From: an uncultured Trueperaceae bacterium
GTDB lineage: Bacteria > Deinococcota > Deinococci > Deinococcales > Trueperaceae
NCBI GenBank assembly: GCA_963815215.1
Contig: CAWFFU010000003.1
Span: 960,001-1,024,000, forward strand
Direction of reading: 5' to 3'
Length of the DNA stretch: 64,000 nt
Within the stretch, counting starts at the first letter, position 1. Each line of letters starts with the position of its first letter. Below the pieces are notes generated by a model. It did no database searches and had not been told where the DNA came from. It was given only the letters and a program-made list of their open reading frames with translations. Positions 36,252 to 51,804 of this stretch are shown piece by piece. A program made the position numbers and the translations under genes.

Positions 36252-36314
36252 ATGGGTGCGCCCCGGAACCTTATGGTTGACGACAATTTCCCCGCGAGGT
36301 GGCTCGGGGCGTAG
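36252..36314 (+). CDS. Putative Asp/Asn-sensing attenuator leader peptide
   Basis: MGAPRNLMVDDNFPARWLGA*; AAC and GAC-GAC-AAT codons; overlaps the antiterminator strand. Confidence 0.6.
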   Translation: MGAPRNLMVDDNFPARWLGA

Positions 36315-36334
36315 GCCGCGGTTCGGCCCTTTGG

Positions 36335-36367
36335 ACACCCCGAGGTTCCCCTCGGGGTGTTTTTCTT
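36335..36367 (+). terminator. Intrinsic terminator (attenuator) upstream of aspS
   Basis: acaccccgagg-ttcc-cctcggggtgt followed by TTTTCTT, 14 nt before the aspS ATG. Confidence 0.85.
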
Positions 36368-36380
36368 GGAGGAGCGTAGG

Positions 36381-37673: not shown

Positions 37674-37936
37674 GCCGCGAGCGGCCTCGGGGCGCCGCGC
37701 GAGCGACCGCAGGTCCGAGCGCTTGCGTGCGCCGCCCGCTCGCCGGACGATTGCGCCCCGGGAACGCGGCCTGCGGAGCACGATGGGACGGCGTTCGCCC
37801 CCTGAAGACCGCGCACGTGCACGTTCCGAAAGCGGGTTCGCCCCAGACTAGGGGCATGGCAGGGACGAGCCCCAGGGCCGACTGCGCATCGGCGCACCGT
37901 GCACGCGACGGCGCCGCTTCGGCGGGCGGCGCCCCC

Positions 37937-38230
37937 ATGGTCGGGCCGGCCGCAACCTTGAGAGAGGCGCGAGTCGTTCCGCGGGGCCTTCGGAGCTGCC
38001 TCGAGCACGAGCTGGAGAACCTGCGGCGACTGCTGCGCTATCGCGGCCTGGAGCGCAGGTTCGGCGATCAGCTCGGGCCCGTCGACGAAGCCGTGCGGGA
38101 GGCGCTGGATGCAGGCTCCCGAACCCTCTCGCTATCCGCTCTGCGAACGATCACCGCGTTGACGACCGAAGTGAACCGCGAGCCTTCGAAGCGTGTGGCT
38201 TCCGGCGACGGCAACGCGGACCGAGCCTGA
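37937..38230 (+). CDS. Hypothetical helical protein (start uncertain)
   Basis: C-terminal part of ORF 37727..38230 is amphipathic (LEHELENLRRLLRY...); no family recognised. Confidence 0.35.
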   Translation: MVGPAATLREARVVPRGLRSCLEHELENLRRLLRYRGLERRFGDQLGPVDEAVREALDAGSRTLSLSALRTITALTTEVNREPSKRVASGDGNADRA

Positions 38231-38469
38231 GCCGCTCTCCGGCAACGGGCGACCGTCGGTTCGAAGCGTCCTCGCGGGCCGCTCTGCTGAGGCCTCGCCA
38301 GGGTCTGCGCCACCACCACCGGCCGGGTCACGGTCCGGGCGCGGCTTCGCCTTCGTAAGCATGTCCATGACGACGGCCTCAGCGCGCCTCCTGGTGCGCC
38401 TCCTGGGATGCCAAGCTCACGCCACTCCGTCGATCGGCCATCGAGCTGCCAGTACGTGCGGTGGCAGGA

Positions 38470-38501
38470 TTGACGGCCGATTGACGGCCCTCCGCTACGC
38501 T
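38470..38501 (+). promoter_or_regulatory. SARP-type direct-repeat operator and -10 element for the CsgG-like gene
   Basis: TTGACGG-ccga-TTGACGG-ccctccgc-TACGCT. Confidence 0.75.
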
Positions 38502-38527
38502 CGCCGAAACCTGGAAGGAGGGTAACG

Positions 38528-39214
38528 ATGCGTCGAGGTGTCGTCTCGCTACTCTTGTCGATCGGTGTTCTCGGGCTGGGGGCGTGCGCCCCCGGAGCTA
38601 CCCGTGTTGCCGCGAGCCCTGCCGACAACGGATCCGCCGCCGCTCCCGCTGACACCATGGCGGCGGCTGACCAACCCTGCGCGTCACCGGACACGCCGGT
38701 GGTGGCGGTGATCCAGTTCGACAACACCACGGCGCAGTACGGCACCACCGTCACCGGCGTCGAGGACGCGGCCACCGCCCGCCTCATCACGCTGATGAAG
38801 GAGTCGGGCTGCTACACAGTCGTGGAGCGCAGCGTGCTGCAGGACCTCATCGCCCAGCAGGGCCTGGAGTCGACGGACCCGGTCGAACTCGCCAAGGCCG
38901 CGGGAGCCGGCTACGTGGTCACCGGCGTCGTCACGCGCGCCACCATCGCCAAGCCGCAGGTGGGGCTGTTCGGCGTGTCCGTCGGCGCCGCCACCGCCCG
39001 GGTCGAGGTAGACGTGCGCGCCACCGACATCATCACCGGCGAGGTCGTGGTGTCGATGACCGGCGGCGGGGACGCCTCGAACCCCAAGCTGGCCCTCAAC
39101 AGAACCCCTGTCGGCCGCATCTCGTACGACGATCCGACGCTCGGGCCGCTCCTAGCCGAGGCGTCGACGCAGGCGGTGGATCAGGTTGTGGCGGCGATCC
39201 GGGCGGAGTTCTGA
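38528..39214 (+). CDS. CsgG/HfaB-family lipoprotein
   Basis: Lipobox LGLGAC; VAVIQFDN, SGCYTVVERS..QDL..QQ, YVVTGVVT, VDVRATDIITGEV. Confidence 0.82.
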   Translation: MRRGVVSLLLSIGVLGLGACAPGATRVAASPADNGSAAAPADTMAAADQPCASPDTPVVAVIQFDNTTAQYGTTVTGVEDAATARLITLMKESGCYTVVERSVLQDLIAQQGLESTDPVELAKAAGAGYVVTGVVTRATIAKPQVGLFGVSVGAATARVEVDVRATDIITGEVVVSMTGGGDASNPKLALNRTPVGRISYDDPTLGPLLAEASTQAVDQVVAAIRAEF

Positions 39215-39289
39215 CGCCCACCCTACCTGTCCTCGGTTCGGTCACCCGCTGCGTCCAGCCCGGAGGACGACCACGGGGAACACCTGGGT

Positions 39290-39780
39290 CGTGGCCGAGT
39301 CCGAACCAATTCGGTCTCGCCGTGCGCCCTCGATGGCCCACAGGCGCCTTCTAGGAGCGTGCTCGCAAACGCTGCGGGGCATGCAGCGGTACACGAAGGC
39401 GGAAGTGCCCGCGCTCCCCGTCGGCGGAATCCACCACCGAGAGGGTGTGCGAAGCCCTGTGCGTGTCGACCCCGATGACGAAACCCATCCTGTCCACGAG
39501 CCCACCAGCACGCATGCCGCAATTCCCGTAGGCATAGTGGTGCGTCCGGTGTGGGCGCCGCAGGCAGGACTGTAGCGGGTCACGCCGATTCGAGTGCGGA
39601 CAGGCTTCCGATCAAGCCAGTCCCGGTGTTCGCGCCGGCGCCCCGGAAGACGAAATCTATCCTGAGCAAGAGCAGTCGCTCCCGACCGCCAATGCGTATA
39701 CAAGTTGCAGCCGGCGGTTTCCTGGAACCACCCTGACAGACAGTCCGCTCCCAAGAGCGGGATTGAGCGACCATTACAGC
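39290..39780 (-). mobile_element. Decayed IS110-family element: frameshifted transposase 5' fragment plus upstream non-coding end
   Basis: MGFVIGVDTHRASHTLSVVD from 39488 (first catalytic Asp of the DEDD domain), stop at 39351, HAPRRRLWAIEG in a different frame. Confidence 0.72.
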
Positions 39781-39789
39781 GTCCTTTCC

Positions 39790-42210
39790 TCAACCTCCTA
39801 CGACGGCCGCGATGCAGGCGTCCATGTACGCATCGTATGTCTCACCTGATAGGGCAGGCAGATTCCTCAGTTTCTTCAAGACAGCGATGACAATCCCGAG
39901 TCCGAACTTCACCCCGACCCCCGGCACCGTTGCGATGAGCGCGGCGAGCCCAAGGTACACCGCGATCTCGAACAGCACGAGGACCACGAGCACGCCCGCG
40001 CACAGCAGTCGCACGCCGAACGCCTCCTCGACCTTGATGAGATCACCTTCGGGGATCGTCTGGAGATCCAACTCTTCGGTGTCATCCTGCGCGAGGAGCG
40101 GTCGTGGCGGCACCCGCGGTTCGGAAAGCACGCTGCGTTGTTGGACTGCACCTCCCATGCCATTCCACAGCATGCCAACGGTCTCACCGGTTTGCGGATC
40201 GATTCGCCACCATGCCGGTGTTGCCGGTCGTGAAACAGGTGGAAGTACGATCACGTAACCAGCGGCCAGCTCGTGCTCGATCAACTCCTGAACGTGTGAC
40301 GGCAGTTGCGACACTGCGCTCGAATCTACGACGTCAGGGCGCAGTACCACGGGCAGCCCATTGGGACTCTCGACGAAGAGGCTTGCTGCCGTCACAGCCG
40401 GCGAGCCAGACAGGGCCGAAAGGTAGACGCCCTCCTGGAGTCCTTCGCGCACACCTGCACGGAGAGCCAGATCGGCACGGGCCTCAACGACCGAGCCACT
40501 CGCGTCGAGGACCCGCCAAGGGCTCTGAGCGAGGTCGATCGACCGATTCGTCGCGGGACCAGCCATCCCCTGCTGAAAGAGCACCACGGCCGGAGCGTTT
40601 CGGAACCGGACCACACCGTCATCAATGGGACCACGGTCGAAGCTCGCCATCAAGTACGAGAGCTGGGCGGTTCGCGCGTTGATACGGCCGAGTTCGCCTC
40701 GCACGTAGCCCTGCGGGATAGGTCCGATCGTTGGCGCACCGTTCCCTTCAACCATGATGCGCTTGAGCAAAGGTTCGGCGTCGACGAGATCACTCAACAA
40801 GTGATCGAGCACGTATGCGTCGGGGAAGCGAGCTCCGTCAGCCGCTATGGCCACGCGCGTCCACAAGCGATCTCCGAAACCGTCATCGGGCTCATTCAGT
40901 CCGCGCGATGCGATGTCGTGGCGATGGCTCGTCGCTTCGCCGTCCGGACCTACGACCGAGACTTTGAGCCAGACGGATGTCACGCGTCTCGCTCGCGCGT
41001 CCTGGTCAGCAACGTTGCCGCCACCGATTCCGCCGAGGGCACCGGCCGCTCGGTTCGTGGCTTTGGCCTCAGCCTGGAACACCCCGGCAAACGGGCTCGC
41101 TGCGGCCTCAAGCGGAGCCACGTTGCCATCGAGGTCGAATGCTTGCGCACCGGCTGGGATCGCACCAGACACCAGAGGGAAGAACATGTTGGGCGTGCCG
41201 GGGCCCGCTTGTGGGTCGCGGCCCAAAATGGAATCTGGGACCAGGGTGACTGAAACGGTGGAGCCATTCAGGTTCGCTACCGGGCGTTCCCACGGAGCTA
41301 TGAGGGCATGGGACTCCGTCTTGTCACCAGAGGTGACGTCCACGAAAGCCTCAACGCGCAGCCGGAACAACAGCCCTTGAGGGATCGTGTCCGTGAACGT
41401 TTCGTCCGGCCCGACCTGTGGCGGCTCGCCCGCAGGAAAACCAAGATGCACGTCCGTCCACGGAGCCGTCGGCGCGAGGCGATAGCGGACCCAGCAGTAA
41501 TCGCGGGCTTCCGCCACCAATTCGTCCGTTGACTGACTTCGCCCGAGTTGGACACCGGCGGTCGAGAGACCATCTGTGATTCGCGCTGTGATGTCTGCGA
41601 CGTACGTGTCGACTGCATCGGGCGATACCGGTCCCCACGCACCAGAAAGGTCCACAACTCTATCCACGGCGGTTTCGTCTGAACCGTTCGAGGTGCCCGC
41701 GATTGCATCGAGTTTGGACGAGTCTACCGAATCCGGGCGGGGCTCGACCTTCCTCCACATCGCGTTGACCAGACGTACGGCATCGTCCGGCCCGAGATTC
41801 CCCCGCGCGATAACGACGTCAAGGCCCGCGTCACGCAAGAGGTGCGCAAGCAGGAGGGATTGATCGAGGGAGTTGCCGGCCCGGCTCCTTAAGGTACCCG
41901 CCGCGCCGCGAAGCGCACCAGAGTAGTCTTCGTACGCAATGTTGGACCGAACCCAATTCACGATCTCATCCGGCCCCGAGAACGCGAAATCGGATGAAAG
42001 GAGATCAACGTCGAACTGCCTTCGGTCGACGGCGTCTCGGACAGCTCGTATCCGGGTCATCGCCGTGTCGAAGTCGACCGGTGCCGATCCCTGGGGGTTG
42101 CCAGCCGCTTGGGCGATCGCGAACTGCGAAGCTCCTGGGGACAGCAGAATCAAGCCAAAGATCAGCCGCAGAACCAAGACGGAGCGGGTCGGCAATGGCG
42201 GGAAACGCAT
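39790..42210 (-). CDS. 806-aa secreted transglutaminase-like protein with hydrophobic C-terminal tail
   Basis: Signal peptide; YEDYSGALRGAAGTL...GNSLDQSLLLAHLLRDAG; CWVRY; WWRIDPQTGE; two C-terminal hydrophobic helices. Confidence 0.75.
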   Translation of the reverse strand: MRFPPLPTRSVLVLRLIFGLILLSPGASQFAIAQAAGNPQGSAPVDFDTAMTRIRAVRDAVDRRQFDVDLLSSDFAFSGPDEIVNWVRSNIAYEDYSGALRGAAGTLRSRAGNSLDQSLLLAHLLRDAGLDVVIARGNLGPDDAVRLVNAMWRKVEPRPDSVDSSKLDAIAGTSNGSDETAVDRVVDLSGAWGPVSPDAVDTYVADITARITDGLSTAGVQLGRSQSTDELVAEARDYCWVRYRLAPTAPWTDVHLGFPAGEPPQVGPDETFTDTIPQGLLFRLRVEAFVDVTSGDKTESHALIAPWERPVANLNGSTVSVTLVPDSILGRDPQAGPGTPNMFFPLVSGAIPAGAQAFDLDGNVAPLEAAASPFAGVFQAEAKATNRAAGALGGIGGGNVADQDARARRVTSVWLKVSVVGPDGEATSHRHDIASRGLNEPDDGFGDRLWTRVAIAADGARFPDAYVLDHLLSDLVDAEPLLKRIMVEGNGAPTIGPIPQGYVRGELGRINARTAQLSYLMASFDRGPIDDGVVRFRNAPAVVLFQQGMAGPATNRSIDLAQSPWRVLDASGSVVEARADLALRAGVREGLQEGVYLSALSGSPAVTAASLFVESPNGLPVVLRPDVVDSSAVSQLPSHVQELIEHELAAGYVIVLPPVSRPATPAWWRIDPQTGETVGMLWNGMGGAVQQRSVLSEPRVPPRPLLAQDDTEELDLQTIPEGDLIKVEEAFGVRLLCAGVLVVLVLFEIAVYLGLAALIATVPGVGVKFGLGIVIAVLKKLRNLPALSGETYDAYMDACIAAVVGG

Positions 42211-42415
42211 TTGTCACCACCCCTTTCGTGTTGTGGCGGACACGATGCCCGCTCGAGCCAACGAAGCGCCAAGACCCCGGGAGCCGTGTGGGCGCCAGCG
42301 CGGGAACCTGGTCCACCGAACTGACGCGCCTACCAACCGGGCGATCGCGCACCGCTCAACGTCGCACGGAGGTGCTGAGCCCGTTGCACGTACCCATGCG
42401 TGCATCAGGGGGCCA

Positions 42416-45400
42416 TCAGCGTCCATTGGCCGTCACCTCGACCTCCTCTTCGGCCGACACTGCAACTGACCGAGATTCGGACTCGCCTCGAATTTGCAGC
42501 TGGTAGTGCCCGGCTGGCACCTGGACAGGGGGCCCGCCGACGTACCCTTCGTCGACCAGCGAGCCCTGGGTCGATATGATCTCGAAGATGATCCGCGAGC
42601 CCGATTTGATCTCCGCTCGCAGCTCGCTTGCGGAAGCCAGATTAGAGTAGCTAGCACCGGCCGCCTGCGCCAAGGATCGGAACCTGTCCTGGACGGCACC
42701 GTCTTCGATGCCGAGGGACACCATAGAAACACTGATACCAGCGCTAGCGAGGGTCTGCAGGGCAACGAGGGGATCACCCCCACACGACTCCTCACCGTCG
42801 GTCACCAGGAAGAGACGTGATCCACTTGGCGCTCTCCGCAGATCGTCGCCAACCGCCGCGATCGAGTCCGCCAACGGCGTCTGCGACAGCAGCTTCGGTT
42901 GGATGGCATCGATCGCCTTCGTGGCGGATGCCGGGTCGAGCGGCGCCAGCGGCACCTCGAGCCGGGTGTCGCACGACGAGGGCTTGATGTGGCCGAACAC
43001 GCGCAACGCGAAGGGTGTGCCCTCGGGCAGCACGTTGGTCACGAAGTCCTTCAGCACCTCGCGGGCGGCGTCGATGCGCGATGTACCATCGGGCAGCTTC
43101 TTGCCCATCGAGCCCGAGGCGTCGAAGATCACCTCGACCGCCGGCTGCGCGGCGCCCTCCGCCCGCACCACCCGGATCGAGCCGGGCCCGGGCGGGGCCT
43201 CGGCGCTCGTCGTGACCTCGACGCGGTAGCGCTTGGGGCGCCGCAGCAGGCAGCTCGCGCGCGCGAAGCCGACGTCGAAGTCCCCGACGTTGCGGGCGTA
43301 GTCGTAGAACCCGTGGTTCGCGTCGGCCCAGGCCTGCATGAGGTCCTGGGAGTAGTCCGAGCCGCCGGTGCTGATCTCGAACGTGAACACGCGTGCGCGC
43401 GAGGCCTCGAGGCTGCGCCACAGCTTCGGCGTCAGACCGTAGCCGGGCGACTCGGCGTCGGTGATCAGCAGTACGGCGCGCGTACCGTCGCGCTGGGCCA
43501 GCGCGTCGCTCGCGGTCAGCAGCGCGTTCTCCGAGTTGCTCGATTCGGCGCTGTCGCGGTCGAAGGTGTTGATGGCCTGCTGCGCCCGCACCGGATCGGC
43601 GCTCCAGTACGGCAGCAACCAGATCGGGCCGGGCTCGTTGTAGGCCAGCAGCTGCACGAACTCGCGGTCGGGATCGGTCCCGCGCGTGAAGCGCGCCAGC
43701 GACGCATAGGTGATGGGGATGTACGGTCCCACACTGCCGCTCGTGTCCCACGCGAAGATGACGGAGCGCTTGGGCTCCGCGAGGTGCAACGTGTACTCCC
43801 CGGGGTCGACATACGCGTCCAGCACGACGGCGTCGCCATCGTGGCGCTCGTCATACGCAACGGCATCGCCGGCCGCGCTCGTCAGCGCATAGTTGTACGC
43901 CAGCGTCGGGTCGCCCTCGAGCCGCAGGCTTAGGTGGTTCTGGCCGTCCGGAACGGTGATCGTGAACCAGTCCTCGTCCTCGGCCACGGCCACGGTGCCC
44001 TCCACCACGTCACCCGACGCCAGGGGGCGCGGGGCGTCGCGGCTGTCGCTGTCCGCGGCGTCCGGCCCGGTCTGGCCGGTCGCTGCGCCGTCGGCGCCCC
44101 CCTGCTGCCACTCGTACACGGCCTCCTTCCTGTACTGGCCCCACTCCCCCACCGCCGAACGGTACCCGTCGCCCGAGGGGCGTTCGAGGATGCGGAGGGT
44201 GTCGGGCGGGAACATCGACCTCACGCCCTGCTCCGGACCCGTGGCCGTGAAGCGCACGAAGCGCGCCCAGCTCGGCTCGGGCAACGCCAACGCCGCCGTG
44301 CCCGCTGCGTCGCGCTCCAGGTGCCAATCCGCCAGGTGTTCCCACGGACCGACCGGCGAAGACAGGCTCACGTCGACGGCGACGTCGGAGAAGGCTCCCT
44401 CGGACGTGCTGTCGCTCGACTCGACCCACTCGAGCCGCGTGAACTGAGCGGCCCGGTCGTCCCGGAAGCCGACCACCCAGGTGGCCCGCGGATTGCCATG
44501 CCCGTCCACGCGCGGCCGGTCGGCCTGCTCGTCGAGAATCATCGAGTGTCGTTGCGACTCGGGGATGAGCGGGTCCGACCAGAGGACGTGACCGCCCAGT
44601 GCGGGGTCCGCGAGGTTCAGCTCGCCCAACGGGTCGTCGGCCGCGGCCACGAGCTTCCACTCGCCGATCCACGCCCCGCTGTTCCCGGCCTGATCGGGGC
44701 CGAAGACCAGGCGCGCGTAGCGCGCTTCGACCGCTTTCGGGAACGCGAACGCCTGCTCGACACGGGCGGCCCGCAGGGACGATTCGAGCACCGTCTCGAA
44801 GGTCTCGCCGTCGAGCGACACCTGGATCGAGAAGTCGCGCAACTGCCGGCGCACGTCCGGGCCGCCCTGCGGTTGCAGAAGAGCGCCGGCCAGCGTGATC
44901 GGTTCGTCACCGGCGAGGTCGACGGTGATCGCCTCGCCGACCTCGTGGTGGGCGCCGGTCGCGGGCGACGTGAGGGCGTCGACGGTCTGGGCGTCGCGGC
45001 CGGCGTCGTCCACGATGGTGGCGCCGAGTCCGGACCAGGCCACGTCAAGGCGTCCGAGCATGGCGTCGGGCACGGCCCAGGAGGCCTTCGGGGCGACGGG
45101 CGCAGCTTCGCAGCGGGGCACGAGCGTGAGGCTCGTGGTCGCGATCCCCGCATCGCTGCGCGCGCCCACGGTCACGCGCACGGGCTGGTCGTCGCGGGCG
45201 TCCGGGGCGACGGTGACTGACAGCGGCACGCTCGCGCGTTGCCCCGGACCCACCGTCACCGTGGCGGGGACGTGGGGTGTGACGGCGACGCTGCTCGTGG
45301 CCACCTCCAAGGCGTACGTCTGCTTGCGATCGGAGGTGTTCTCGATCGTCAACTCGTCATCGAGCGCCTGTCCCTCGTACCAGTAGGCAGCCACGTCCCG

Positions 45401-47743
45401 GGCCGACCGCTCGAGCGCGAGGCTGGCCCCGGGATCACCGTTCGGCGGACGAAGCTCCGAGGCGTCGGGCGCGGAGCCGAAGCGAGCGACGAAGCGGTAG
45501 TCTCCCCTACCGTTCATGCGCAGGAACAGGTGTGCCCCGGCCGGGAGGTCAGCGTCGAAAGAGCCATCATTGTTGCGCACAAGACGCGGAGCGCCGTCAC
45601 CGAGCAGCGCGATGCGCGTGTCCTCACCGAGCGTCCCGTCGACATGAAGCGTGGTCGGAGCGTCGAATGCGGGCAGTGCGTAGAAGTCGGGGCCCGTGAT
45701 GTCGCCCACCTTCCCCTCCACGTCGAGGTCGGCGGGCAGCCGATTGGCCGTCGCGGGACTGTCGTTGGGCTCCACATCGTCGGGCAGAGTGAAGGGGTCG
45801 AGCTGGCTCATGCGGAGTTGGTAGTACCCGTCGGAGGCGGTATCGGCGCGCAACCACAGGTCGTAGTTCCCGGCCAGCAGCCGACGCTGGAAGACCACGG
45901 GCGAGCCCGGACCCTGGGACTGGGCGCGCACCCCTGCCTCGCGCACGTCGAAGAAGAGACTCCCGTCCTCAGGCGGCACCGCCTCGATGCGCACGTACTG
46001 GTCGCTGGCGAGGTAGAAGCGGTAGGCATCCACGTCGTTCGTGCCGGTGAGCACGCCGACGCGGGTCTGGCCGACCCGGAGGAGCTCGGCGCGGCTATCG
46101 TCGTCGTTGGGCTCGAGCTCGATCACGCCCGGGGGAGGCGGCGGCCCGGACGGCTCGATCGCCTCGGGCTCCGCCTGTGGCGGTGGCGCCGCGGCCTTCA
46201 GGGGCAGTTGCTGAGCGCCCGCATCTTCGGCCGAAGGCGGAGCCGGCTTCTCGTCGGGCACCGGGCCGAGCGCGAGCGCGCGCAGCGCGTAGGCGCCAGC
46301 GTTGCCGCCGACCTCGATGAAGTGCTCGCCCGGTAACAGCGCCACGTTGTCGAGCCGGATACGCCGCTCACCCTGCAGCGACGCCTGGCGCGCTCCGCCG
46401 GCGTCGTACGTGGTCAGCGAACGAACGCCCGAGCCGACGGCCTGGATGCGCCAGAGCTGCGCCGGACCCGTGGTGGTGAAGCGGTACACGTCCTTGTCCT
46501 GCACCTCCAGCCCCCCGCGCACCGTGAGCCCGTCGGAGAGCGGATCCGCGACCGCGAGGACGTCGTTCGGCTCGCTCTCGTGTCCGTCCTCGGGGGGGCT
46601 CGCCTCGGAGAACACCAACGTGTACGACGCGTCGCCGCCCACGCCCACGGTTACCCCGTAGCGGGGGGCGTCGAGGACAAGGCCGCGCATCGCTCCCGAC
46701 GCCCCGTGACGGGTCTGGATCTCCTCGTGGTCGGCGCTGAAAAGCGAGAGGTAGGCGTTGGCGTCCGACTCCAGGCTCAGGTCGTAGGTCTTGCCGCGCG
46801 CCGCGTCGGGCACGTCGAGCACGAAGTAGTCCTTGTCCGGTCCGGAGCCGTGCATCGCTCGTCCCAGCGACAACACATTGGCCTCGTCCCAGCCGTTGTT
46901 GGGCTCCACCTCGTTGCCGTCGGTGACGCGCCCGGCCGAGGTGGCGCTCAGGGTGAACGGGGCGCCGGACGGTAGTCCCGTAACGCTCACGGCTACCTCA
47001 CCGGCACCGACGCCGAGCGAGCGCAGCGTCGCCCGACCCAGCTCACCCGTGCCGCTCGCGGCCACCTCCGCCCCGTCGGCGCCTCGGAGCGCCAACCTGG
47101 CGTCGCTGCCCACCGCGGCTACGAGCTCGAGGTCCCACCGCAGCGACGCGTCGTCCGCGGCGAGCCGCCATGGCAACGCCACCTCACCGTTCGCCATGCC
47201 GAAGATCGCGAACGCTCCGTCGACGCCGTCGAGACCGTCGACGCCGCGTCGACCACGGCGAAGCGCATCGCCCGGATCGAGGTGGACAACGTAGGCGCCT
47301 TCACCCCCGCTCTTGGACACACCTAGCACGTACCTTCCCGGTGCCACGAGGACCGGCGCAGACTCGGTCAGGGCGCCGCCCGGCGACGTGAACGAGGCGA
47401 GCGTGTCGGCCGCCGTGACGTCGACACCGTTGTCCGCCAAGGTCACGCGGATCAGGTCGACCTTCGTGAGGTGACCCGGGATCCCCTCCATGCTCACAGA
47501 CCACCAGCGAGCCGCCGCCTCATCGTCGACCACCCACAGGTAGGCGTCCTGATCCTGCGCCGCCATCGACCCCGCGATGCACAGGGTGTCGCTCACATCC
47601 TGCGCCGTCGCGGGCGTGTCGTTGGGCTCAGCGTCGACGGTGCACACCTGGGCACCGGCCGTTGCAGCCAGGAGGATCGCGGTCACGGCGACGGCCACCC
47701 GTAGCACGCCGGGTGGGGCCTCACCCAGGTACGGCTTCGGCAT
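42416..47743 (-). CDS. 1775-aa secreted multidomain protein: PPC-like EPND repeats, discoidin-like region, two VWA domains
   Basis: Signal peptide ending AGA-Q; five EPN(D/N) repeats; SLDG..F..V/ARYARL discoidin-like motif; MIDAS DTSGS..ITDAE and DASGS..VTDGEESCGG. Confidence 0.85.
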   Translation of the reverse strand: MPKPYLGEAPPGVLRVAVAVTAILLAATAGAQVCTVDAEPNDTPATAQDVSDTLCIAGSMAAQDQDAYLWVVDDEAAARWWSVSMEGIPGHLTKVDLIRVTLADNGVDVTAADTLASFTSPGGALTESAPVLVAPGRYVLGVSKSGGEGAYVVHLDPGDALRRGRRGVDGLDGVDGAFAIFGMANGEVALPWRLAADDASLRWDLELVAAVGSDARLALRGADGAEVAASGTGELGRATLRSLGVGAGEVAVSVTGLPSGAPFTLSATSAGRVTDGNEVEPNNGWDEANVLSLGRAMHGSGPDKDYFVLDVPDAARGKTYDLSLESDANAYLSLFSADHEEIQTRHGASGAMRGLVLDAPRYGVTVGVGGDASYTLVFSEASPPEDGHESEPNDVLAVADPLSDGLTVRGGLEVQDKDVYRFTTTGPAQLWRIQAVGSGVRSLTTYDAGGARQASLQGERRIRLDNVALLPGEHFIEVGGNAGAYALRALALGPVPDEKPAPPSAEDAGAQQLPLKAAAPPPQAEPEAIEPSGPPPPPGVIELEPNDDDSRAELLRVGQTRVGVLTGTNDVDAYRFYLASDQYVRIEAVPPEDGSLFFDVREAGVRAQSQGPGSPVVFQRRLLAGNYDLWLRADTASDGYYQLRMSQLDPFTLPDDVEPNDSPATANRLPADLDVEGKVGDITGPDFYALPAFDAPTTLHVDGTLGEDTRIALLGDGAPRLVRNNDGSFDADLPAGAHLFLRMNGRGDYRFVARFGSAPDASELRPPNGDPGASLALERSARDVAAYWYEGQALDDELTIENTSDRKQTYALEVATSSVAVTPHVPATVTVGPGQRASVPLSVTVAPDARDDQPVRVTVGARSDAGIATTSLTLVPRCEAAPVAPKASWAVPDAMLGRLDVAWSGLGATIVDDAGRDAQTVDALTSPATGAHHEVGEAITVDLAGDEPITLAGALLQPQGGPDVRRQLRDFSIQVSLDGETFETVLESSLRAARVEQAFAFPKAVEARYARLVFGPDQAGNSGAWIGEWKLVAAADDPLGELNLADPALGGHVLWSDPLIPESQRHSMILDEQADRPRVDGHGNPRATWVVGFRDDRAAQFTRLEWVESSDSTSEGAFSDVAVDVSLSSPVGPWEHLADWHLERDAAGTAALALPEPSWARFVRFTATGPEQGVRSMFPPDTLRILERPSGDGYRSAVGEWGQYRKEAVYEWQQGGADGAATGQTGPDAADSDSRDAPRPLASGDVVEGTVAVAEDEDWFTITVPDGQNHLSLRLEGDPTLAYNYALTSAAGDAVAYDERHDGDAVVLDAYVDPGEYTLHLAEPKRSVIFAWDTSGSVGPYIPITYASLARFTRGTDPDREFVQLLAYNEPGPIWLLPYWSADPVRAQQAINTFDRDSAESSNSENALLTASDALAQRDGTRAVLLITDAESPGYGLTPKLWRSLEASRARVFTFEISTGGSDYSQDLMQAWADANHGFYDYARNVGDFDVGFARASCLLRRPKRYRVEVTTSAEAPPGPGSIRVVRAEGAAQPAVEVIFDASGSMGKKLPDGTSRIDAAREVLKDFVTNVLPEGTPFALRVFGHIKPSSCDTRLEVPLAPLDPASATKAIDAIQPKLLSQTPLADSIAAVGDDLRRAPSGSRLFLVTDGEESCGGDPLVALQTLASAGISVSMVSLGIEDGAVQDRFRSLAQAAGASYSNLASASELRAEIKSGSRIIFEIISTQGSLVDEGYVGGPPVQVPAGHYQLQIRGESESRSVAVSAEEEVEVTANGR

Positions 47744-47821
47744 GGTCCTCTCCCTTCCGCGGGCGCGCTCGCCGCACCCAGGCGAACGACGCGCTCGGCC
47801 CGGCACCCAGGGGCCGCGTCG

Positions 47822-48019
47822 TCACTGCTGATCTGGCATGAGGGCGTCGACCTCGAAGTGGCCCTCACTCGTCGTGAGCCCGAGGGTGCTCCAACTCCGC
47901 TCTTCGCCGCCCCGGGTCGCCGATACGGTGCCGGTGACCTGCGCCTGGCCAGCCACGGCGCCGACGACCGTGAGCGCCAGGATCACGAAAGCGCCATCCA
48001 GCCAGGCTCGCTGTCGCAT
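47822..48019 (-). CDS. 65-aa secreted protein (possibly internally deleted)
   Basis: AAGGAGG RBS; signal peptide ending GQA-Q; first gene after the SARP-type box. Confidence 0.6.
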   Translation of the reverse strand: MRQRAWLDGAFVILALTVVGAVAGQAQVTGTVSATRGGEERSWSTLGLTTSEGHFEVDALMPDQQ

Positions 48020-48268
48020 GGTTCCCTCCTTCGTGTGCCAGGCACCCTCTCGCACTGCTCCGAGGCTTCCTCCCACGACGCGCGCTGCGTGAAGCGCCGG
48101 ACGAGCGCCGCCAGGTCACGGACGTGGCGCAACGCACCCCTCCGTAGATCCGGCAGGGTGGCGCGCCAAGCTTCCTCAAGGCGCACATACCGCTACACGC
48201 GCAGCGCGAAGCGCCGGTCCGTCACCTGACGGCCGCTCGACTCCAGGTCGGCACATCGGCACGGAACA

Positions 48269-48300
48269 AGGCTAGGCGGGGGCCGTCAATCGGGCGTCAA
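48269..48300 (-). promoter_or_regulatory. Second SARP-type direct-repeat operator and -10 element
   Basis: TTGACGC-ccga-TTGACGG-cccccgcc-TAGCCT on the - strand, overlapping the stop codon of the BTAD gene. Confidence 0.75.
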
Positions 48301-50828
48301 ACGCTTCGAGGCACGTAGCGATCGAGGGACGCGGCGAGCGAGGCGGCCAGCTCCTGCGGGAGGCCCCTCGCCATCTCCAGGGCAAGACGTTCGGCTTCTC
48401 CCCGAAGGGCATCGGCGTCCAGGTCCGGGCAGCGCGCCAGCGCACCCAGCAGGCACAGCAGAAAGGGCGCCTCTGTCACCCGTGAGCCGCGCACCATCGC
48501 CGCTAGCTCCGCCGCCTCGGCGCAATCACCGTCGCCTGGTGCACCCCATCGCACCCGGAAGCGTCCTGCGCGCATCAACAGGGCACGGTGCGGGTTGATC
48601 GCAGTGGCGGTGACATCCCGCTCGCCATCCGCTGCAGGGGGGCGGTTGCCAACTCCCTCCTTTCCGAGCAGCGCGCTGGCCACTCCGGGTGGCGCAGTCA
48701 TGGCAAGGCCGCACGCGAGCCCTGTGGCCGCGTCGTCGAGGTTGGCACGGCGCAGCGCGTCGAGGAGCAGCATCGCGCGCGCCCAGGCACGGTCGCCAGG
48801 TGGGTGCGATCGCCCCGAGACCTCGAGCAACGTCTCGGCCGCCTGGAGTTGGAGCGAACGGCTTGGGTCGTCGTCCCCGAGTGCCGACCGGGCGCGTGCG
48901 AGGCAGGCGCGGGCCCGCTCGAATGCGCCGCACTGCCGCGCCACGTCGGCTTGCACGTCTGCCGCCTGGACCGCTACATGCCCATCGCATCGCTCGAGGG
49001 CCGATGCTTCGACCTCGGCTGCGGTGTTCCAGGCCGGCCCCAGCTCGCCTATCTTGGCGTTCACCGCAGCGAGGTTCACGAGGACCTGATCCTCATGAAG
49101 GCGGCTCGCGTGCCGGCGGGCGAGCCGGACCGCGTCGGCCAGGTGGTCATGAGCGCGGCCGTAGTCGCCCTGCCGTTCGGCGGTGGCCGCTAGGTTGTTG
49201 ACCGATTCCGCCACATCGTCGTGGCGGCCCGTCGCCCGGGCCAGCGTCAGGGCCCGCTCGAAGTATCGATACGACGTCTCCAGGTCACCTTGGAGTCCGG
49301 TGAGCGCACCGAGGTTGTTGAGCGCCCGGTAGCGCTCGACCGCCTCCTCAGCACCTTCGTTCTCGGCGAAGGCCTCGCGTGCCGCTGCGAGCTGACCGCT
49401 GAAGAAGAGCGCTGCGCCTACGGCGTTCCCGGCCCGCGCAACCAGTGCCGGCTGCGCCAGGCGCTCAGCGGAAGCGGCGGCGCGCCGGGCCAGCTTCAAC
49501 GCCTCCTGCGGGCGCCCACGTCGAAGATGCACCCGCGACCGGCGCAATCGCACCTCGAGCAGGGAGCGGTCGTCCTGCGACGCCCACGCCGACTCCTCAG
49601 CGGCAGCGAGCGCGGCATCCTGGAGGTCCCTATCCCGCCTCACCTCAGCCACGCCCTCGAGCAGCAGGAGCGCATCGAAGCGCACGCCCCGGTCGGTGCT
49701 GGCCCATAGGGCGCGGTATGCCCGGCGTTCGGCGGCTACGTCGGCGCCCTCCTCGGCGGCGGCGCGCGCGGCGCGCAGCAGCAGCGGCGCGGCGCGATCG
49801 GGCTCGTGTGCCCCGAGCCAGTGACGCGCGACGCGCGTCTCGCTGCCGCCGCCCGCCTCGAGGGCGGTGGCGATCCGCTCGTGGAGTACGCGTGCGACCG
49901 CAGGGGGCGCCAGGGTCCGCGCCTCCAGCAGCATCTCGCGCGGCAACTCGTGGTGGGCGTCGAGCACGCCCACCCGCATCAGGCGTTCGAGATCATCTGC
50001 GACGTCCAGCGAGTCACGGCCCACCACGGCCGCCAACACGCGCGGCCGAAGCGCTCCCCTAGCGACCGCGAGCGCCTGGACCACGCGCCGAAGGCGATCG
50101 TCGAGGCTCCAGAGCGATGCGCTCATCGGCAGCGGGCGACCGCGGTCGATGGCGTCGGCGAGCTCCACGGTAGCCTGCTGCGGCGCCACGTCGAGATCTC
50201 GACGCAGGCGCTCGCGACACCTGGCGAAGAGCGCCTGCGCGTCTCGGCGCCGCCCCAGCCGGTACAGCAGTCGCATGCCGACTCGATACGCGGTCTCGTT
50301 CAGCGAGTCGATCGCGATGAGCTGTTCGACGCGGCCGAGGGCCTCACTCTGGAGGCCCTCGGACTCGAGCTCGAGCGCGCAAGCCAGAAGGGCGTCGATG
50401 CGCATGGTGTCGAGGCGCGCACGTTCGACGTCCAACCATTCCACGAAAGGGGGCGCCGCAACGCTATCGAGCACCTGCGCCAGCGCCCCCCGCCAGAGCT
50501 CCAGCGCCGCGACATGCTCGCCATCGGCACAGAGGCGCTCGAACTCGGCGACGTCGGTGCGGGCGAGCACCCGCACACGGGAACCGTCGAGCTGCAACCA
50601 CGCCTCGGCTCCTCGCAGCTTGCGGAGCTCGTACAGGGCCTGGCGGACGCTTCCCAACCTGCCCGGACTCCACAGCAGCTCGGCGAGCTCGCCCCGGTCC
50701 GCACCGTTCGGCCGCAGCGCCAGAAACACGAGCAGCGCCAACGCCTTGCGGGCCGCGGGCCGAACCTCGGCGTCGCCCCAGCGGAACGCCGTTCCCCCGA
50801 ACAATGTGACGGAGAGCGCGGCGCGCAT
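48297..50828 (-). CDS. SARP/BTAD transcriptional activator with TPR repeats
   Basis: RKALALLVFLAL...ELAELLW wHTH; DVAEF, LWRG, WL..ER, NETAYR..M BTAD; NNLG/NNLA TPRs. Confidence 0.85.
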   Translation of the reverse strand: MRAALSVTLFGGTAFRWGDAEVRPAARKALALLVFLALRPNGADRGELAELLWSPGRLGSVRQALYELRKLRGAEAWLQLDGSRVRVLARTDVAEFERLCADGEHVAALELWRGALAQVLDSVAAPPFVEWLDVERARLDTMRIDALLACALELESEGLQSEALGRVEQLIAIDSLNETAYRVGMRLLYRLGRRRDAQALFARCRERLRRDLDVAPQQATVELADAIDRGRPLPMSASLWSLDDRLRRVVQALAVARGALRPRVLAAVVGRDSLDVADDLERLMRVGVLDAHHELPREMLLEARTLAPPAVARVLHERIATALEAGGGSETRVARHWLGAHEPDRAAPLLLRAARAAAEEGADVAAERRAYRALWASTDRGVRFDALLLLEGVAEVRRDRDLQDAALAAAEESAWASQDDRSLLEVRLRRSRVHLRRGRPQEALKLARRAAASAERLAQPALVARAGNAVGAALFFSGQLAAAREAFAENEGAEEAVERYRALNNLGALTGLQGDLETSYRYFERALTLARATGRHDDVAESVNNLAATAERQGDYGRAHDHLADAVRLARRHASRLHEDQVLVNLAAVNAKIGELGPAWNTAAEVEASALERCDGHVAVQAADVQADVARQCGAFERARACLARARSALGDDDPSRSLQLQAAETLLEVSGRSHPPGDRAWARAMLLLDALRRANLDDAATGLACGLAMTAPPGVASALLGKEGVGNRPPAADGERDVTATAINPHRALLMRAGRFRVRWGAPGDGDCAEAAELAAMVRGSRVTEAPFLLCLLGALARCPDLDADALRGEAERLALEMARGLPQELAASLAASLDRYVPRSV

Positions 50829-51080
50829 GGAGCGTGGCACCCCTCAAGCGCGAGCTGGAACGACGGCATGACCCTTGGAGGGCACGCCATCACGCGACTC
50901 GAGCGGCGGCGCGGCTCGCAACGCCCCGCAGCTCCTACCGGAATGATGCGGCCATCATAGCCGGAAGGTCGCGCGACGGATAGCTGTGATGTGCCCGCAG
51001 GTAGATTCGTCGCAGTGGCGGCACGGGATCTCATGCCGGGAGGTGTCATCCCGGACCTCGGCCATGCGCCGCTGGCGTGG

Positions 51081-51692
51081 CTAGGACGCCAGGTCGAACA
51101 GCGGAGTGTCGCGCGCTTCCTTGAGCACCACGTGGCAGCTGCGGCAGCGCGGCTCGTAGCGCTCCGAGGCCCCCACCAGGATCACCGGATCGTCGTAGTG
51201 AGCGGGCCGCCCGCCGATCAGCCGCTGCGTGCGCGTCGCAGCGCGCCCGCACGAGCAGATCGCGGTCAACTTCTCCACCACCTCGGCCTGCGCCAACAGC
51301 GTAGGCATGGGGCCGAAGGGCTCGGCCCGGAAGTCGAGGTCGAGCCCGGCCACGATGACGCGCTTGCCGGCATCGGCGAGGTCCAGCGCCAGCCCCACCA
51401 GCGCGTCGTCGAAGAACTGGGCCTCGTCCACCGCCACGACCTGGGTGTCGTCGGCGAGGAGCCGCCGAATTCCGGCGGTGTCGTCGACGGGGATGGCCTT
51501 CAGAGAGCGACCGTCGTGCGAGGCCACCGCCTCCGGCACGTAGCGGTCGTCGATGGCAGGCTTGAACACCTGCACCTGCTGCCGGGCGATGAGGGCGCGG
51601 TTCACGCGCCGGATGAGCTCCTCGGACTTGCCGCTGAACATGGGGCCGACGATCAGCTCGATCCAGCCTCCACCGAAGGCGTGCGCTAGCAT
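51081..51692 (-). CDS. tdk: Thymidine kinase
   Basis: [40 protein letters not shown]. Confidence 0.95.
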
Positions 51693-51804
51693 GCCGCCAT
51701 GCTACCGCAGCACCCTGCCGGCACCCGGAGGACCACGCCGGCGGTAGCGGACCCCGCTCCACGCGAGTAGACTCCAGGGGAATCGTTCCGCCCGGGAGGC
51801 ACAT

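Follow-up and report, generated by a model that had tools for sequence, protein, structure and literature searches.

Between aspS and tdk, an uncultured Trueperaceae bacterium carries genes for a SARP-type regulator, a very large secreted protein (GIANT), a partner with a transglutaminase fold (TG) and a CsgG-family lipoprotein. They lie in the window, by which we mean the whole stretch of 64,000 nucleotides that was analysed, and a first-pass annotation had read them as one inducible system that exports an adhesin or a surface scaffold. Do these four proteins belong together, and what might they do? Every gene named in that annotation is present at its position; a small ORF with an in-frame TAG (LRVW) had been overlooked. 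The features are listed below, where G008 is a genome of the same genus as the window's own genome (G000).

36357–37673, plus strand: aspS
38470–38501, plus strand: SARP box and promoter of the lipoprotein gene (exact genome copy)
38528–39214, plus strand: CsgG-family lipoprotein gene, 228 aa (Pfam CsgG 67.1 bits, lipobox LGLGAC)
39216–42771, minus strand: replaceable 3.55-kb cassette (break in nucleotide homology to G008)
39790–42210, minus strand: TG, 806 aa (signal peptide, C-terminal hydrophobic helices)
42416–47743, minus strand: GIANT, 1775 aa (F5/8 type C and FixG_C Ig-like matches)
47822–48019, minus strand: 65-aa ORF, remnant of f5_192 (deletion relative to G008)
47983–48225, minus strand: LRVW, small conserved ORF with an in-frame TAG (from the translation)
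48269–48300, minus strand: SARP box and promoter of the GIANT operon (exact genome copy)
48297–50840, minus strand: BTAD-TPR (SARP-type) regulator, 847 aa (BTAD 62.6 bits)
51081–51692, minus strand: tdk

An operator shared by two promoters

The regulator consists of an N-terminal region, a BTAD domain and a TPR region (TPR_12, 50.2 bits). Pfam reports neither an OmpR-type DNA-binding domain nor NB-ARC, and no P-loop motif is seen by eye. The protein is 97% identical to that of G008 and 39–53% identical to those of other genera, and tdk adjoins its gene in every case.

The first-pass annotation proposed that one operator serves both transcription units, and the genome bears this out: the box TTGACGS-N4-TTGACGG, followed after 8 nt by TAnnnT, has only two exact copies in the 3,316,786 bp searched (97% complete), one at each promoter. 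Likewise, TTGACG-N5-TTGACGG has exactly two genome matches, at 38470–38487 (+) and 48283–48300 (−). On the lipoprotein side, TTGACGG (38470–38476), a 4-nt spacer and TTGACGG (38481–38487) are followed after 8 nt by a −10-like TACGCT (38496–38501), and the ATG is at 38528. On the operon side (minus strand), TTGACGC (48300–48294), a 4-nt spacer and TTGACGG (48289–48283) precede, again by 8 nt, a −10-like TAGCCT (48274–48269); this box lies just after the regulator gene and overlaps its stop codon. When up to two mismatches are allowed the window holds five matches, a count reached by none of 100 shuffles.

Published accounts of SARP operators give heptamer repeats in classical 11-bp units (PMC10972967) and a distance of 8 nt between the repeats and the −10 element downstream of them (PMC11301090). 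Two direct TTGACGS heptamers with an 11-bp period, 8 bp before TAnnnT, reproduce this classical geometry of a SARP-activated promoter. The support is strong for this reading, for the BTAD-TPR regulator having what is probably a dedicated operator, and for the presence of this operator at exactly two promoters here, that of the lipoprotein gene and that of the unit LRVW(psi)-S65(psi)-GIANT(-TG), in which S65 is the 65-aa ORF. The Streptomyces SARP regulons (ActII-ORF4, DnrI, AfsR-afsS) share this geometry, and also have a BTAD activator encoded inside the cluster that it controls and a small-protein gene as first target, afsS being an example. They differ in that the phylum here is Deinococcota, the repeat is TTGACGS, the targets are envelope or secreted proteins rather than antibiotic biosynthesis genes, and the C-terminal half of the regulator is TPR, with no ATPase detected.

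Of 8 related regions, 6 have an exact box before the orthologous lipoprotein gene, and a seventh has it with one mismatch. Within a 79-locus set the count is 6 out of 9 loci, and LRVW has the box upstream in 7 loci. All of the 21 exact boxes found in 16 related regions are intergenic, upstream of lipoprotein, LRVW, fam7, f5_192, TG, GIANT or small ORF genes. The 79 loci without the window's own, a set which partly overlaps the former, contain 28 exact boxes, 27 of them intergenic and each at a distance of 150 nt or less before a cluster gene or a small ORF. These 28 are all in loci that have Deinococcota-type synteny or are titled Trueperaceae, Deinococcaceae or "uncultured bacterium"; the loci of this set that are titled as other phyla have no exact box. 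Since relatives, too, have this box in front of the lipoprotein gene and of further genes of the cluster, co-regulation is well supported at the level of sequence. No RNA run contains the stretch.

It could be argued that the lipoprotein gene is a mere syntenic neighbour, lying between the cluster and aspS and having an unrelated role of its own, because it has its own promoter, is mostly convergent to the operon and does not appear beside the module in the loci of other phyla. This explanation is disfavoured and we find it very improbable: the lipoprotein gene has the same rare box in most relatives, and its phyletic pattern is about that of TG (among 37 genomes of the family, the window's included, 13 have a full-length TG, 12 a close orthologue of the lipoprotein, and 11 both).

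A two-gene module inside a lineage cluster

GIANT and TG are found together in Deinococcota, Gammaproteobacteria, Burkholderiaceae, Chloroflexota, Acidobacteriota and others. GIANT adjoins TG in 53 of the 79 loci, and in 31 of the 37 that have at least 6.5 kb on both sides. Their divergences are correlated (r 0.75 over 861 pairs), TG being generally the faster, and the TG family comprises 2,552 clusters at 50% identity (E ≤ 1e-30). These comparisons strongly support the view that GIANT and TG make up a conserved two-gene module across phyla. Among the neighbour families of the 79 loci, none other is common beyond about ten Deinococcota-type loci, and in no phylum does the pair have conserved secretion-system genes next to it.

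By contrast, SARP, the lipoprotein and four more small or membrane proteins are seen almost exclusively in loci that have the tdk/aspS synteny typical of Trueperaceae and Deinococcaceae, in which the canonical order is tdk, then SARP-LRVW-f5_192-fam7-fam15-TG-GIANT-(M20)-lipoprotein, then aspS. In 8 of the 11 genomes that have both TG and the lipoprotein, a single contig carries the two genes within 11 kb; for a ninth, the contig with TG ends in sequence that matches the 3' end of the lipoprotein gene. One genome (G035) has TG and the lipoprotein in the locus without GIANT or SARP.

The co-occurrence of the four proteins that had been anticipated is thus found within the family, where TG and the lipoprotein occur together in 11 genomes, while across phyla it is limited to GIANT and TG. 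Neither CsgG nor SARP is seen in the loci of other phyla, where the pair is self-contained, so that the four proteins are not one indivisible system; the lipoprotein, which is not seen in module loci outside Deinococcota, is not essential to the module. We lean, by a little, towards the view that the cluster is a SARP regulon of Trueperaceae and Deinococcaceae built around an older two-gene envelope module.

What the components resemble

The PPC, discoidin and double VWA content attributed to GIANT holds. In the window's copy, F5/8 type C (37.7 bits) and FixG_C Ig-like (25.9 bits) are matched, with PPC (20.8 bits) and VWA_3 (25.4 bits) under the cut-off; an orthologue is over it for PPC (35.3 bits) and VWA_2 (38.7 bits), and neither MIDAS motif varies in any of the 37 sequences aligned. 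The domain map shows five collagenase-CBD-like (PPC) modules marked by EPND or EPNN, an Ig-like domain and discoidin/CBM32 domains. These are followed by another PPC, the sixth, by a pair of VWA domains whose MIDAS motifs are intact and by a C-terminal tail for which the sequence predicts a beta-rich structure. The solved structures matched by the GIANT profile include ColG/ColH collagen-binding domains (best 5iku, E 2.5e-17; 1nqj, 4.6e-09), the VWA of a mussel thread protein (4cn8, E 1.6e-07) and CBM32 entries (E 2e-06 to 1e-04). It resembles in sequence the collagen-binding domains of clostridial collagenases, CBM32/discoidin domains and PTMP1 (tandem VWA), but strings such modules in one non-enzymatic protein with a dedicated membrane partner. 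This domain content suggests an adhesin or a surface scaffold.

TG has a signal peptide, a transglutaminase/papain-like fold (residues ~67–280), a further ectodomain for which structure comparison gives no clear match, and membrane helices (721–805). Transglut_core is matched by 22 of 26 family members (best E 5.9e-08), the window's copy scoring 19.5 bits for a cut-off of 23, and the AF2 model (pLDDT 74.1, pTM 0.78) resembles PeiW (Z 10.3), LapG (10.1) and TglA (10.0). The earlier description of TG as a transglutaminase-like anchor is therefore right about the fold (Z about 10), but the protein has no Cys-His-Asp triad. The residues at the triad positions are S114, Y238 and H255, and none of 159 family members has Cys at the nucleophile position. 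The place of the triad is occupied by an invariant Asn/Asp/Tyr/His set (N113 and D116 in 159/159, Y238 in 156/159, H255 in 152/159).

In the Lap system of Pseudomonas, the giant VWA-bearing adhesin LapA is associated with the periplasmic transglutaminase-like protease LapG. The likeness is that of a very large VWA adhesin-like protein and a transglutaminase/papain-like partner predicted to face the periplasm; contrary to LapG, TG lacks Cys-His-Asp and is itself membrane-anchored, and GIANT has a Sec signal peptide, with no type I secretion or LapD-like genes conserved nearby.

Regarding the lipoprotein, its CsgG score is far above the cut-off of 20.8 bits, and it has the CsgG/PelC/TolB-N superfold after a low-complexity linker that follows the lipobox Cys. 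Its orthologues (55–70% identity) keep the lipobox and two more conserved Cys. The AF2 model (pLDDT 77.1) comes about as close to PelC (Z 13.9) as to a flagellar LPHT-ring protein (13.0) or to CsgG (12.5), and PelC-, LpoB-, LptE- and TolB-N-like lipoproteins are among its structural matches. The export role inferred from the CsgG family is thus not supported by the model, which shows no preference for CsgG; it fits PelC rings as well, so that a channel role is unproven.

Like the curli channel, the lipoprotein has a lipobox, the Pfam match and the fold (rmsd 4.2 over 147 residues), and a Gly-rich stretch in it falls, in the alignment, on the first membrane hairpin of the E. coli protein. On the contrary, its core is of ~175 aa against 262 aa for mature E. 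coli chains, the aligned hairpin region is shorter by 6 residues, and the similarity to solved CsgG is marginal (E 0.06). The annotation had noted the lack of csgA/B/E/F genes in the window, and indeed CsgE, CsgF and the curlin repeat are not found in the whole genome (97% complete), whose single CsgG-family gene is that of the cluster. The structure matched best is that of PelC (rmsd 2.3 over 130 residues; further matches Z 13.3 and 12.7), an outer-membrane lipoprotein of similar size that makes up a ring in the exporter of Pel polysaccharide; here neither Pel genes nor a PelB-type porin are conserved in the cluster, and the presumed cargo is a protein. A folded 190-kDa protein is not among the known cargoes of CsgG or PelC.

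It may also be that GIANT never leaves the periplasm and is held there by TG as a guard or envelope-maintenance module that binds polymers or intruding proteins, in the manner of a bacterial alpha-2-macroglobulin and its partner. The Sec signal peptide as sole export signal, the lack of conserved secretion-system genes beside the pair, the predicted periplasmic orientation of the TG ectodomain and the mostly periplasmic action of lipoproteins such as those matched above are consistent with this proposal. We regard it as unlikely, given that its collagenase-type binding modules, CBM32 and VWA domains are of the kind that binders outside the cell typically have, and that no protease-trap features are seen.

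The rearranged copy and the function of the system

Three or four parts of the cluster are missing or broken in this genome compared to relatives. The membrane proteins fam7 and fam15 are not found in the 97%-complete genome. LRVW, whose family members are found in related loci and which is the first gene past the SARP box in relatives, has TAG (48193–48195) in place of a conserved Trp codon (TGG in G008). Of the three genes with a signal peptide that the annotation counted, GIANT and TG stand; the 65-aa ORF is a deletion remnant of f5_192, a ~190-aa secreted family with full-length members at the same position in 10 loci. It has lost 173 bp relative to G008 (whose own gene is frameshifted). 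What is left encodes the signal peptide, ~20 residues at the start of the mature protein and ~14 at its end; in runs X1 and X3, contigs span this site without gaps. With fam7 and fam15 missing, LRVW stopped and f5_192 a stub, the system of this genome may not work as in relatives.

The nucleotide homology to G008 (93%) ends at 42771 and restarts at 39216. Besides the TG gene, the cassette in between has 575 nt in which no gene is recognised and ~118 codons from the end of GIANT; its GC drops to 0.63–0.65, and the GC3 of TG is 0.695 against 0.82–0.95 for neighbouring genes. Metagenome contigs break near both ends in all four runs, and in run X5 one contig joins 39216 directly to 42771. While GIANT is 91% identical between G000 and G008, TG is only 33% identical and the GIANT tail 24–56%, and the genes of the two cassettes have opposite orientations. 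Judging from these alignments, the window's TG is not the co-evolved partner of its GIANT.

One could conclude that the locus is a relic, decaying and no longer working as a unit, whose operator and large ORFs are leftovers. The broken LRVW, the f5_192 stub, the missing fam7 and fam15, the foreign composition around TG and a ~800-bp stretch without recognised gene between aspS and the box all point that way. We think this doubtful, however, since the 5.3-kb GIANT ORF, the 2.4-kb TG ORF, the regulator and the lipoprotein are uninterrupted, the latter two are 97–98% identical to G008, and both boxes are exact. The ancestral TG has been lost from its usual place, yet TG is again found beside GIANT in G000 and G008 as unlike alleles, which argues for selection keeping the pair.

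Another hypothesis is that TG and the C-terminus of GIANT are an exchanged specificity determinant of a strain-recognition or antagonist-driven surface locus, comparable to self-recognition pairs and phage-receptor loci. The unlike, inverted cassettes within flanks of 93% identity, the contigs that break at their borders or span the join, the faster divergence of TG and its atypical GC3 in three genomes (0.70, 0.74 and 0.60) would fit. This is quite improbable in our opinion: the final 130 residues of GIANT vary no more than the rest in 10 other close pairs, the alleles are still homologous rather than unrelated folds of toxins or immunity proteins, PADLOC gives no defence-family match, and one recombination event could explain the difference between G000 and G008.

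The first-pass interpretation therefore holds for co-regulation and co-occurrence, and not for an indivisible system or an export pore. What the system does is still something that we infer. The TPR part of the regulator would read a signal, and the regulator would recruit RNA polymerase to both promoters. GIANT, exported by Sec, would be a multivalent, metal-dependent binder by virtue of its collagenase-type modules, CBM32 lectin-type domains and two MIDAS VWA. TG, with its C-terminal helices in the cytoplasmic membrane and its ectodomain in the periplasm, would be a receptor, holder or processing partner of GIANT, acting by its repurposed active-site pocket (N113, D116, Y238, H255) and not by Cys catalysis. 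At the outer membrane the lipoprotein may assemble into a ring like that of PelC or CsgG, and in this lineage the ring would help GIANT to reach or stay at the cell surface. Counted against this explanation is that GIANT and TG could both remain periplasmic.

GIANT and TG are a widespread module, so far unstudied, and on balance we slightly favor the view that the locus is a local, partly eroded copy of the regulon, the end result of which would be regulated adhesion or matrix building.

Genes and predicted operator between aspS and tdk

The genes that the first-pass annotation had placed between aspS and tdk, in a window of about 70% G+C, are all found by gene calls and Pfam. They comprise the two large genes that we refer to as GIANT and TG, and a 65-aa open reading frame that is a trace of f5_192, an accessory family of the cluster; a trace of a second accessory family, LRVW, is added here.

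Genes from aspS to tdk in the window (coordinates, strand, description)
36357–37673, +, aspS
38528–39214, +, lipoprotein of the CsgG family (Pfam CsgG, 67.1 bits)
39790–42210, −, TG, 806 aa, transglutaminase fold (Transglut_core 19.5 bits, just below the cut-off)
42416–47743, −, GIANT, 1775 aa (F5/8 type C, 37.7 bits; Ig-like FixG_C)
47822–48019, −, 65-aa open reading frame, remnant of f5_192
47983–48225, −, LRVW open reading frame with an in-frame TAG
48297–50840, −, BTAD-TPR regulator (BTAD 62.6 bits, and TPR)
51081–51692, −, tdk

The BTAD domain of the regulator (PF03704, cut-off 22.1, score 62.6 bits) spans residues 111–231. It is preceded by about 100 residues, as is the case in SARPs, and no match of the regulator to Trans_reg_C is listed in Pfam at E up to 5. 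Ahead of the lipoprotein gene lies TTGACGG-CCGA-TTGACGG, followed after 8 nt by TACGCT, and directly past the stop codon of the regulator lies TTGACGC-CCGA-TTGACGG, followed after 8 nt by TAGCCT. The pattern TTGACG-N5-TTGACGG has exactly two copies in the genome (3,316,786 bp), one at each of these sites, which bears out the earlier proposal of an operator common to the lipoprotein gene and the minus-strand unit; the number of boxes observed in the window with up to two mismatches was reached in none of 100 shuffles. Passages of two papers describe the targets of SARPs as direct heptamer repeats with an 11-bp period (PMC10972967), which end 8 nt upstream of the −10 element (PMC11301090). The boxes of the window have this geometry (heptamers, 11-bp period, 8 bp to the −10 element) and are a predicted operator.

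The box is conserved in relatives. In 16 related regions, 21 exact boxes were found, all of them intergenic, which precede genes encoding the lipoprotein, LRVW, f5_192, TG, GIANT, a small open reading frame or fam7 (another accessory family). A scan of one genome per species gave 28 exact boxes, 27 of which are intergenic, all located at most 150 nt upstream of a gene of the cluster or of a small open reading frame (LRVW 7, lipoprotein 6, TG 5, fam7 3, f5_192 2, GIANT 1, small open reading frames 4); the two sets overlap partly because some of the loci are the same places. Every locus that carries one of these 28 boxes either has the tdk/aspS synteny or is titled Trueperaceae, Deinococcaceae or "uncultured bacterium", and no exact box lies in the scanned loci titled Proteobacteria, Chloroflexota, Acidobacteriota or Rhodothermales. 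This phylogenetic footprinting is evidence, at the level of sequence, for a single SARP regulon that includes both the lipoprotein gene and the operon.

PADLOC gave no match for nine cluster proteins, NCBIfam returned nothing specific for the cluster proteins, Rfam found no RNA family over 36000–54000, the promoter and terminator scan gave no useful output, no RNA run was listed among the public sequencing runs with this stretch, and searches of one full-text collection turned up no account of the cluster. No gene is recognised in the roughly 800 bp that separate aspS from the SARP box (37674–38469); the only sizeable open reading frame there (37727–38230, 167 aa, GC3 0.79) is without a Pfam match, and none of the fetched loci contains a relative.

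GIANT and TG as a widespread pair

When 1.84 billion cluster representatives were searched with the profile of TG, 7,658 relatives came up at E ≤ 0.001, and 2,552 (clusters at 50% identity) at E ≤ 1e-30; the best 150 matches are mostly full length; a word-based protein search returned just 13 relatives, all without a name. The scan of one genome per species gave 159 stretches with TG relatives, 80 of which were kept, and their titles include Trueperaceae, Deinococcaceae, Rhodothermales, many Gammaproteobacteria, Burkholderiaceae, Desulfobulbaceae, Acidobacteriota and Chloroflexota. When the locus of the window is excluded, GIANT adjoins TG in 53 of 79 loci, and in 31 of the 37 that extend at least 6.5 kb on each side; the two genes are co-oriented in 45 of the 53 adjacent pairs. 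The divergence of TG is correlated with that of GIANT (r = 0.75 over 861 locus pairs), TG being the faster of the two. No further gene family is common to more than about ten loci, and those ten are of the Deinococcota type. The size of the TG family and its adjacency to GIANT make GIANT+TG a widespread two-gene module, to which a single lineage is seen to have added the SARP, the lipoprotein and the small proteins. The co-occurrence of four proteins, as initially proposed, stands within the family, where TG and the lipoprotein are found together in 11 genomes; of the four, only GIANT and TG were seen together elsewhere. Weak relatives of fam7 (141–143 bits) lie 3–4 kb from TG in two Burkholderiaceae loci (L062:3643–4692 and L078:14718–15701), which makes fam7 the sole accessory family met outside Deinococcota.

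According to its motifs, GIANT consists of a signal peptide, five PPC-type modules marked by EPND or EPNN, an Ig-like domain, a discoidin region, a sixth PPC module, VWA1 (from about residue 1326), VWA2 (from about 1535) and a tail of about 60 residues. In this copy, PPC (20.8 bits) and, in a C-terminal piece, VWA_3 (25.4 against 27) are below the Pfam cut-off, and an orthologue scores 35.3 bits for PPC and 38.7 for VWA_2; these weak assignments, and that of Transglut_core in TG, hold because relatives match and the MIDAS motifs are invariant. Indeed, D1333/S1335/S1337 and D1429 of VWA1, and D1541/S1543/S1545, T1622 and D1649 of VWA2, are invariant in 37/37 aligned sequences from several phyla; in the metal-site motif DxSxS...T...D, the middle position of VWA1 is S1401/S1402, not T. 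Among solved structures, the GIANT profile matches the collagen-binding domains of clostridial collagenases (E 2.5e-17), as well as CBM32/discoidin modules and a VWA domain from a matrix protein of mussel threads. Another secreted protein with a VWA domain (666 aa, 51805–53805, +), the VWA being N-terminal and about 39% identical to VWA2 of GIANT and followed by about five beta-sandwich repeats, is encoded nearby, with no SARP box upstream of its gene in the window; in the related genome G019, a relative of 730 aa is encoded between aspS and the lipoprotein gene.

TG had been described as transglutaminase-like, and this is true of its fold only. The AF2 model (pLDDT 74.1, pTM 0.78) has a domain of papain/transglutaminase type and matches, over residues ~58–427, the pseudomurein endoisopeptidase PeiW (Z 10.3), LapG (Z 10.1) and TglA (Z 10.0), and 22 of 26 relatives match PF01841. 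Foldseek with the whole model gave no PDB match at E ≤ 0.001, neither the TG profile nor residues 60–300 matched the sequences of solved structures, and a wide structure search outside ~67–280 gave no clear match, the helical-bundle matches being at non-discriminating Z. Residues 721–805 form helices that are hydrophobic by sequence. In a relative, the canonical transglutaminase core is GVCQDYA...SHAWVE...FDPT; hhalign places its His at Y238 and its Asp at H255, and the motif register places its Cys at S114. In the 159 members of the TG family, the Cys site is A (113), S (40), T (5) or V (1) and never Cys, the His site is Y in 156 and the Asp site is H in 152, while N113 and D116 are present in all 159. 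A Cys-His-Asp transglutaminase or peptidase was rejected, the triad being absent from all 159 members.

One of the main rival explanations is that the locus is decaying, and lesions do exist in the local copy. The LRVW reading frame has a TAG where G008, a relative of the same genus, has a conserved TGG, and a 173-bp deletion has reduced f5_192, already frameshifted in G008, to the 65-aa open reading frame, which is thus a leftover and not the component that it was taken for. As for TG, the near-invariance of the pocket residues argues that the site is not decayed but fixed in another state, and points to a binding pocket or to other chemistry. A prediction of the complex between residues 41–690 of TG and 1530–1775 of GIANT gave a score of 0.00; it was run without controls and weighs neither way.

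The lipoprotein and the cluster in the family

We searched 61 genomes, 37 from the family (including that of the window) and 24 from four sister families. TG is present in 13 of the 36 other family genomes and in none of the 24 sister-family genomes, and close orthologues of the lipoprotein (E ≤ 6e-51) are found in 11 other genomes, all from the family. Counting the genome of the window, full-length TG is found in 13, the lipoprotein in 12 and both in 11; two genomes have TG without the lipoprotein, and one has the lipoprotein and, close to it, no more than a fragment of TG. For 8 of the 11 genomes, the two genes are on a single contig at most 11 kb apart, and in G008 the contig with TG ends in 44 nt that correspond to the 3' end of the lipoprotein gene.

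The cluster occupies a fixed chromosomal site, with the canonical order hslUV-tdk, SARP, LRVW, f5_192, fam7, fam15 (the fourth accessory family), TG, GIANT, (M20 peptidase), lipoprotein, aspS, the lipoprotein gene being usually convergent. Pfam has no family for the four accessory proteins, and in the ESM Atlas fam7 fell only into clusters labelled "hypothetical protein".

Accessory families of the cluster (approximate length, topology)
LRVW, ~70 aa, signal peptide absent
f5_192, ~190 aa, secreted
fam7, ~350 aa, several membrane helices
fam15, ~210 aa, one membrane helix

LRVW (motif RYLLRVWRE...W.A.LRD, for example L048:8565–8774) is always the first gene past the regulator and box in the relatives seen, and it may be a co-factor or a read-out of the SARP. 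The cluster is a frequent insertion target: in genome G029, a DDE_3 transposase gene splits f5_192 (L014:11197–12797), and between GIANT and the lipoprotein gene there are genes for a transposase of the Mutator family and for a 526-aa lectin+VWA protein. The composition of the locus also varies. In G024 (L021/L032), GIANT and TG are present with a SARP box ahead of GIANT, but the 31.5 kb fetched contain no regulator, and a close orthologue of the lipoprotein was not found in the genome; in G035 (L016), fam15, the lipoprotein and TG lie between tdk and aspS, with no GIANT or SARP there.

The assignment of the lipoprotein to the CsgG family stands on its Pfam score and on a lipobox whose Cys is kept in 13 of 14 orthologues, but its model (pLDDT 77.1) is matched about equally by PelC (5t0z, Z 13.9, rmsd 2.3 over 130 aligned residues; 5t10, Z 13.3; 9h80, Z 12.7), by a flagellar LPHT-ring protein (Z 13.0) and by CsgG (Z 12.5), scores that are tied within about 1.5 Z; TolB-N, LptE and LpoB follow at Z about 10. 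In the CsgG channel, each subunit contributes two membrane-spanning beta-hairpins to an oligomeric barrel. By sequence, solved CsgG is matched only marginally (E 0.06), and the aligned hairpin region of E. coli CsgG is 6 residues longer than that of the lipoprotein, whose monomer model has long strands at 129–141 and 155–167 with a 13-residue loop. A complete curli system was rejected: as the first-pass annotation had stated for the window, curli partners are lacking, and even genome-wide (97% complete) there is no match to CsgE (PF10627), CsgF (PF10614) or curlin repeats (PF07012), the E. coli control being positive. PelC systems, for their part, have a PelB-type porin and Pel synthesis genes, none of which is conserved within the loci of this cluster. 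We keep the lipoprotein as a member of the Pfam CsgG family that may form a pore. Another main rival explanation is that the role is periplasmic rather than at the surface.

Probable exchange of the cassette and a proposed machine

Compared with G008, the local copy is rearranged. The regulator (97% identical), GIANT (91%) and the lipoprotein (98%) are well conserved, and in both genomes TG sits after GIANT and not in its usual place before it, but the two TG are only 33% identical and in opposite orientation. Nucleotide homology (93%) ends at 42771, inside the 3' end of GIANT, and is back at 39216, two bases past the stop codon of the lipoprotein gene. Per 50 residues, the identity of GIANT is 84–100%, except for 68% at 501–550, and it drops to 56%, 34% and 24% in the last 125 residues. 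The GC3 of TG is 0.695, against 0.82–0.95 in neighbouring genes, and the 575-nt spacer of the cassette (39216–42771) is unique in the genome. Pairs of loci whose GIANT are more than 90% identical have TG at 80–93%, which makes the G000/G008 pair (the genome of the window and its relative), with 91% and 33%, an outlier. Neither fam7 nor fam15 was found anywhere in the genome of the window. The simplest reading is that fam7-fam15-TG disappeared in the common ancestor of G000 and G008, that a segment with a GIANT tail and TG then entered by recombination in the conserved VWA2 region, and that one or both of the present cassettes are later arrivals or replacements.

A cassette of this kind recalls a last main rival, a strain-specificity or antagonist-driven locus. 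The particular case of a polymorphic toxin or contact-dependent inhibition cassette was rejected: the switch at 42771 is sharp, yet the tails are homologous (24–56%), the next gene encodes a member of a conserved family of about 800 aa and not a small immunity protein, and in 10 other close pairs the tail of GIANT is not especially variable, no more so than the rest. An IS110-type transposase remnant at 39351–39515, suggested by a motif, was also discarded, since Pfam gave nothing and a genome search with PF01548 had no match there.

Metagenome contigs break near both borders of the cassette in all four public runs, and in run X5 one contig joins 39216 to 42771, whatever lies between the two. 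Runs X1 and X3 have the 173-bp deletion of the genome of the window, and X2 and X5 have about 168 extra letters, as in G008. Contig-based run depths across the cassette were left out of the argument, since they give no valid ranking of the segments within a stretch. A contig of 3,746 bp from a Gemmatimonadaceae bin (L035), 99.7% identical to 39161–42906, most likely belongs to the organism of the window, and was probably mis-binned through the composition of the cassette (64% G+C, against 70% for the genome).

Evidence supports the regulon and the pairing of the two genes, while we infer the functional role from domain content and topology. A programme activated by the SARP would yield a large, multivalent, metal-dependent binding protein, GIANT, which would be handled by its membrane partner TG via a repurposed transglutaminase pocket, and the same programme would, in this lineage, also yield an outer-membrane ring-type lipoprotein. 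Taken to its end, and as a whole we hold this for unlikely, GIANT+TG would be an unrecognised and widespread two-component envelope machine, in which a Cys-less TG with an invariant Asn-Asp-Tyr-His pocket (new chemistry, or a lock for the MIDAS site of a VWA) loads, modifies or holds a multivalent binder of about 190 kDa; in Trueperaceae it would have been placed under a SARP, with the small LRVW co-factor and a PelC/CsgG-like ring, and exchange of the TG/GIANT-tail cassette would set strain specificity.

The TG family is large and uncharacterised, and its partner is in almost every case a giant protein of the VWA/lectin type, in bacteria from sediment, soil and saline habitats that belong to several phyla. 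So large a conserved pair, without an assigned role, deserves structural and genetic work, and the altered but invariant residue set of TG hints at a repurposed enzyme or else at a dedicated receptor. Since close strains differ by a replaceable cassette, nature offers an experiment on partner specificity. A SARP regulon found outside actinomycetes, whose operator is defined and whose targets are not antibiotic genes, is clean and testable, and widens the range of functions controlled by this class of regulators. If the proposed machine exists, its PelC/CsgG-like ring would be a new route for a large folded protein to the surface of diderms.
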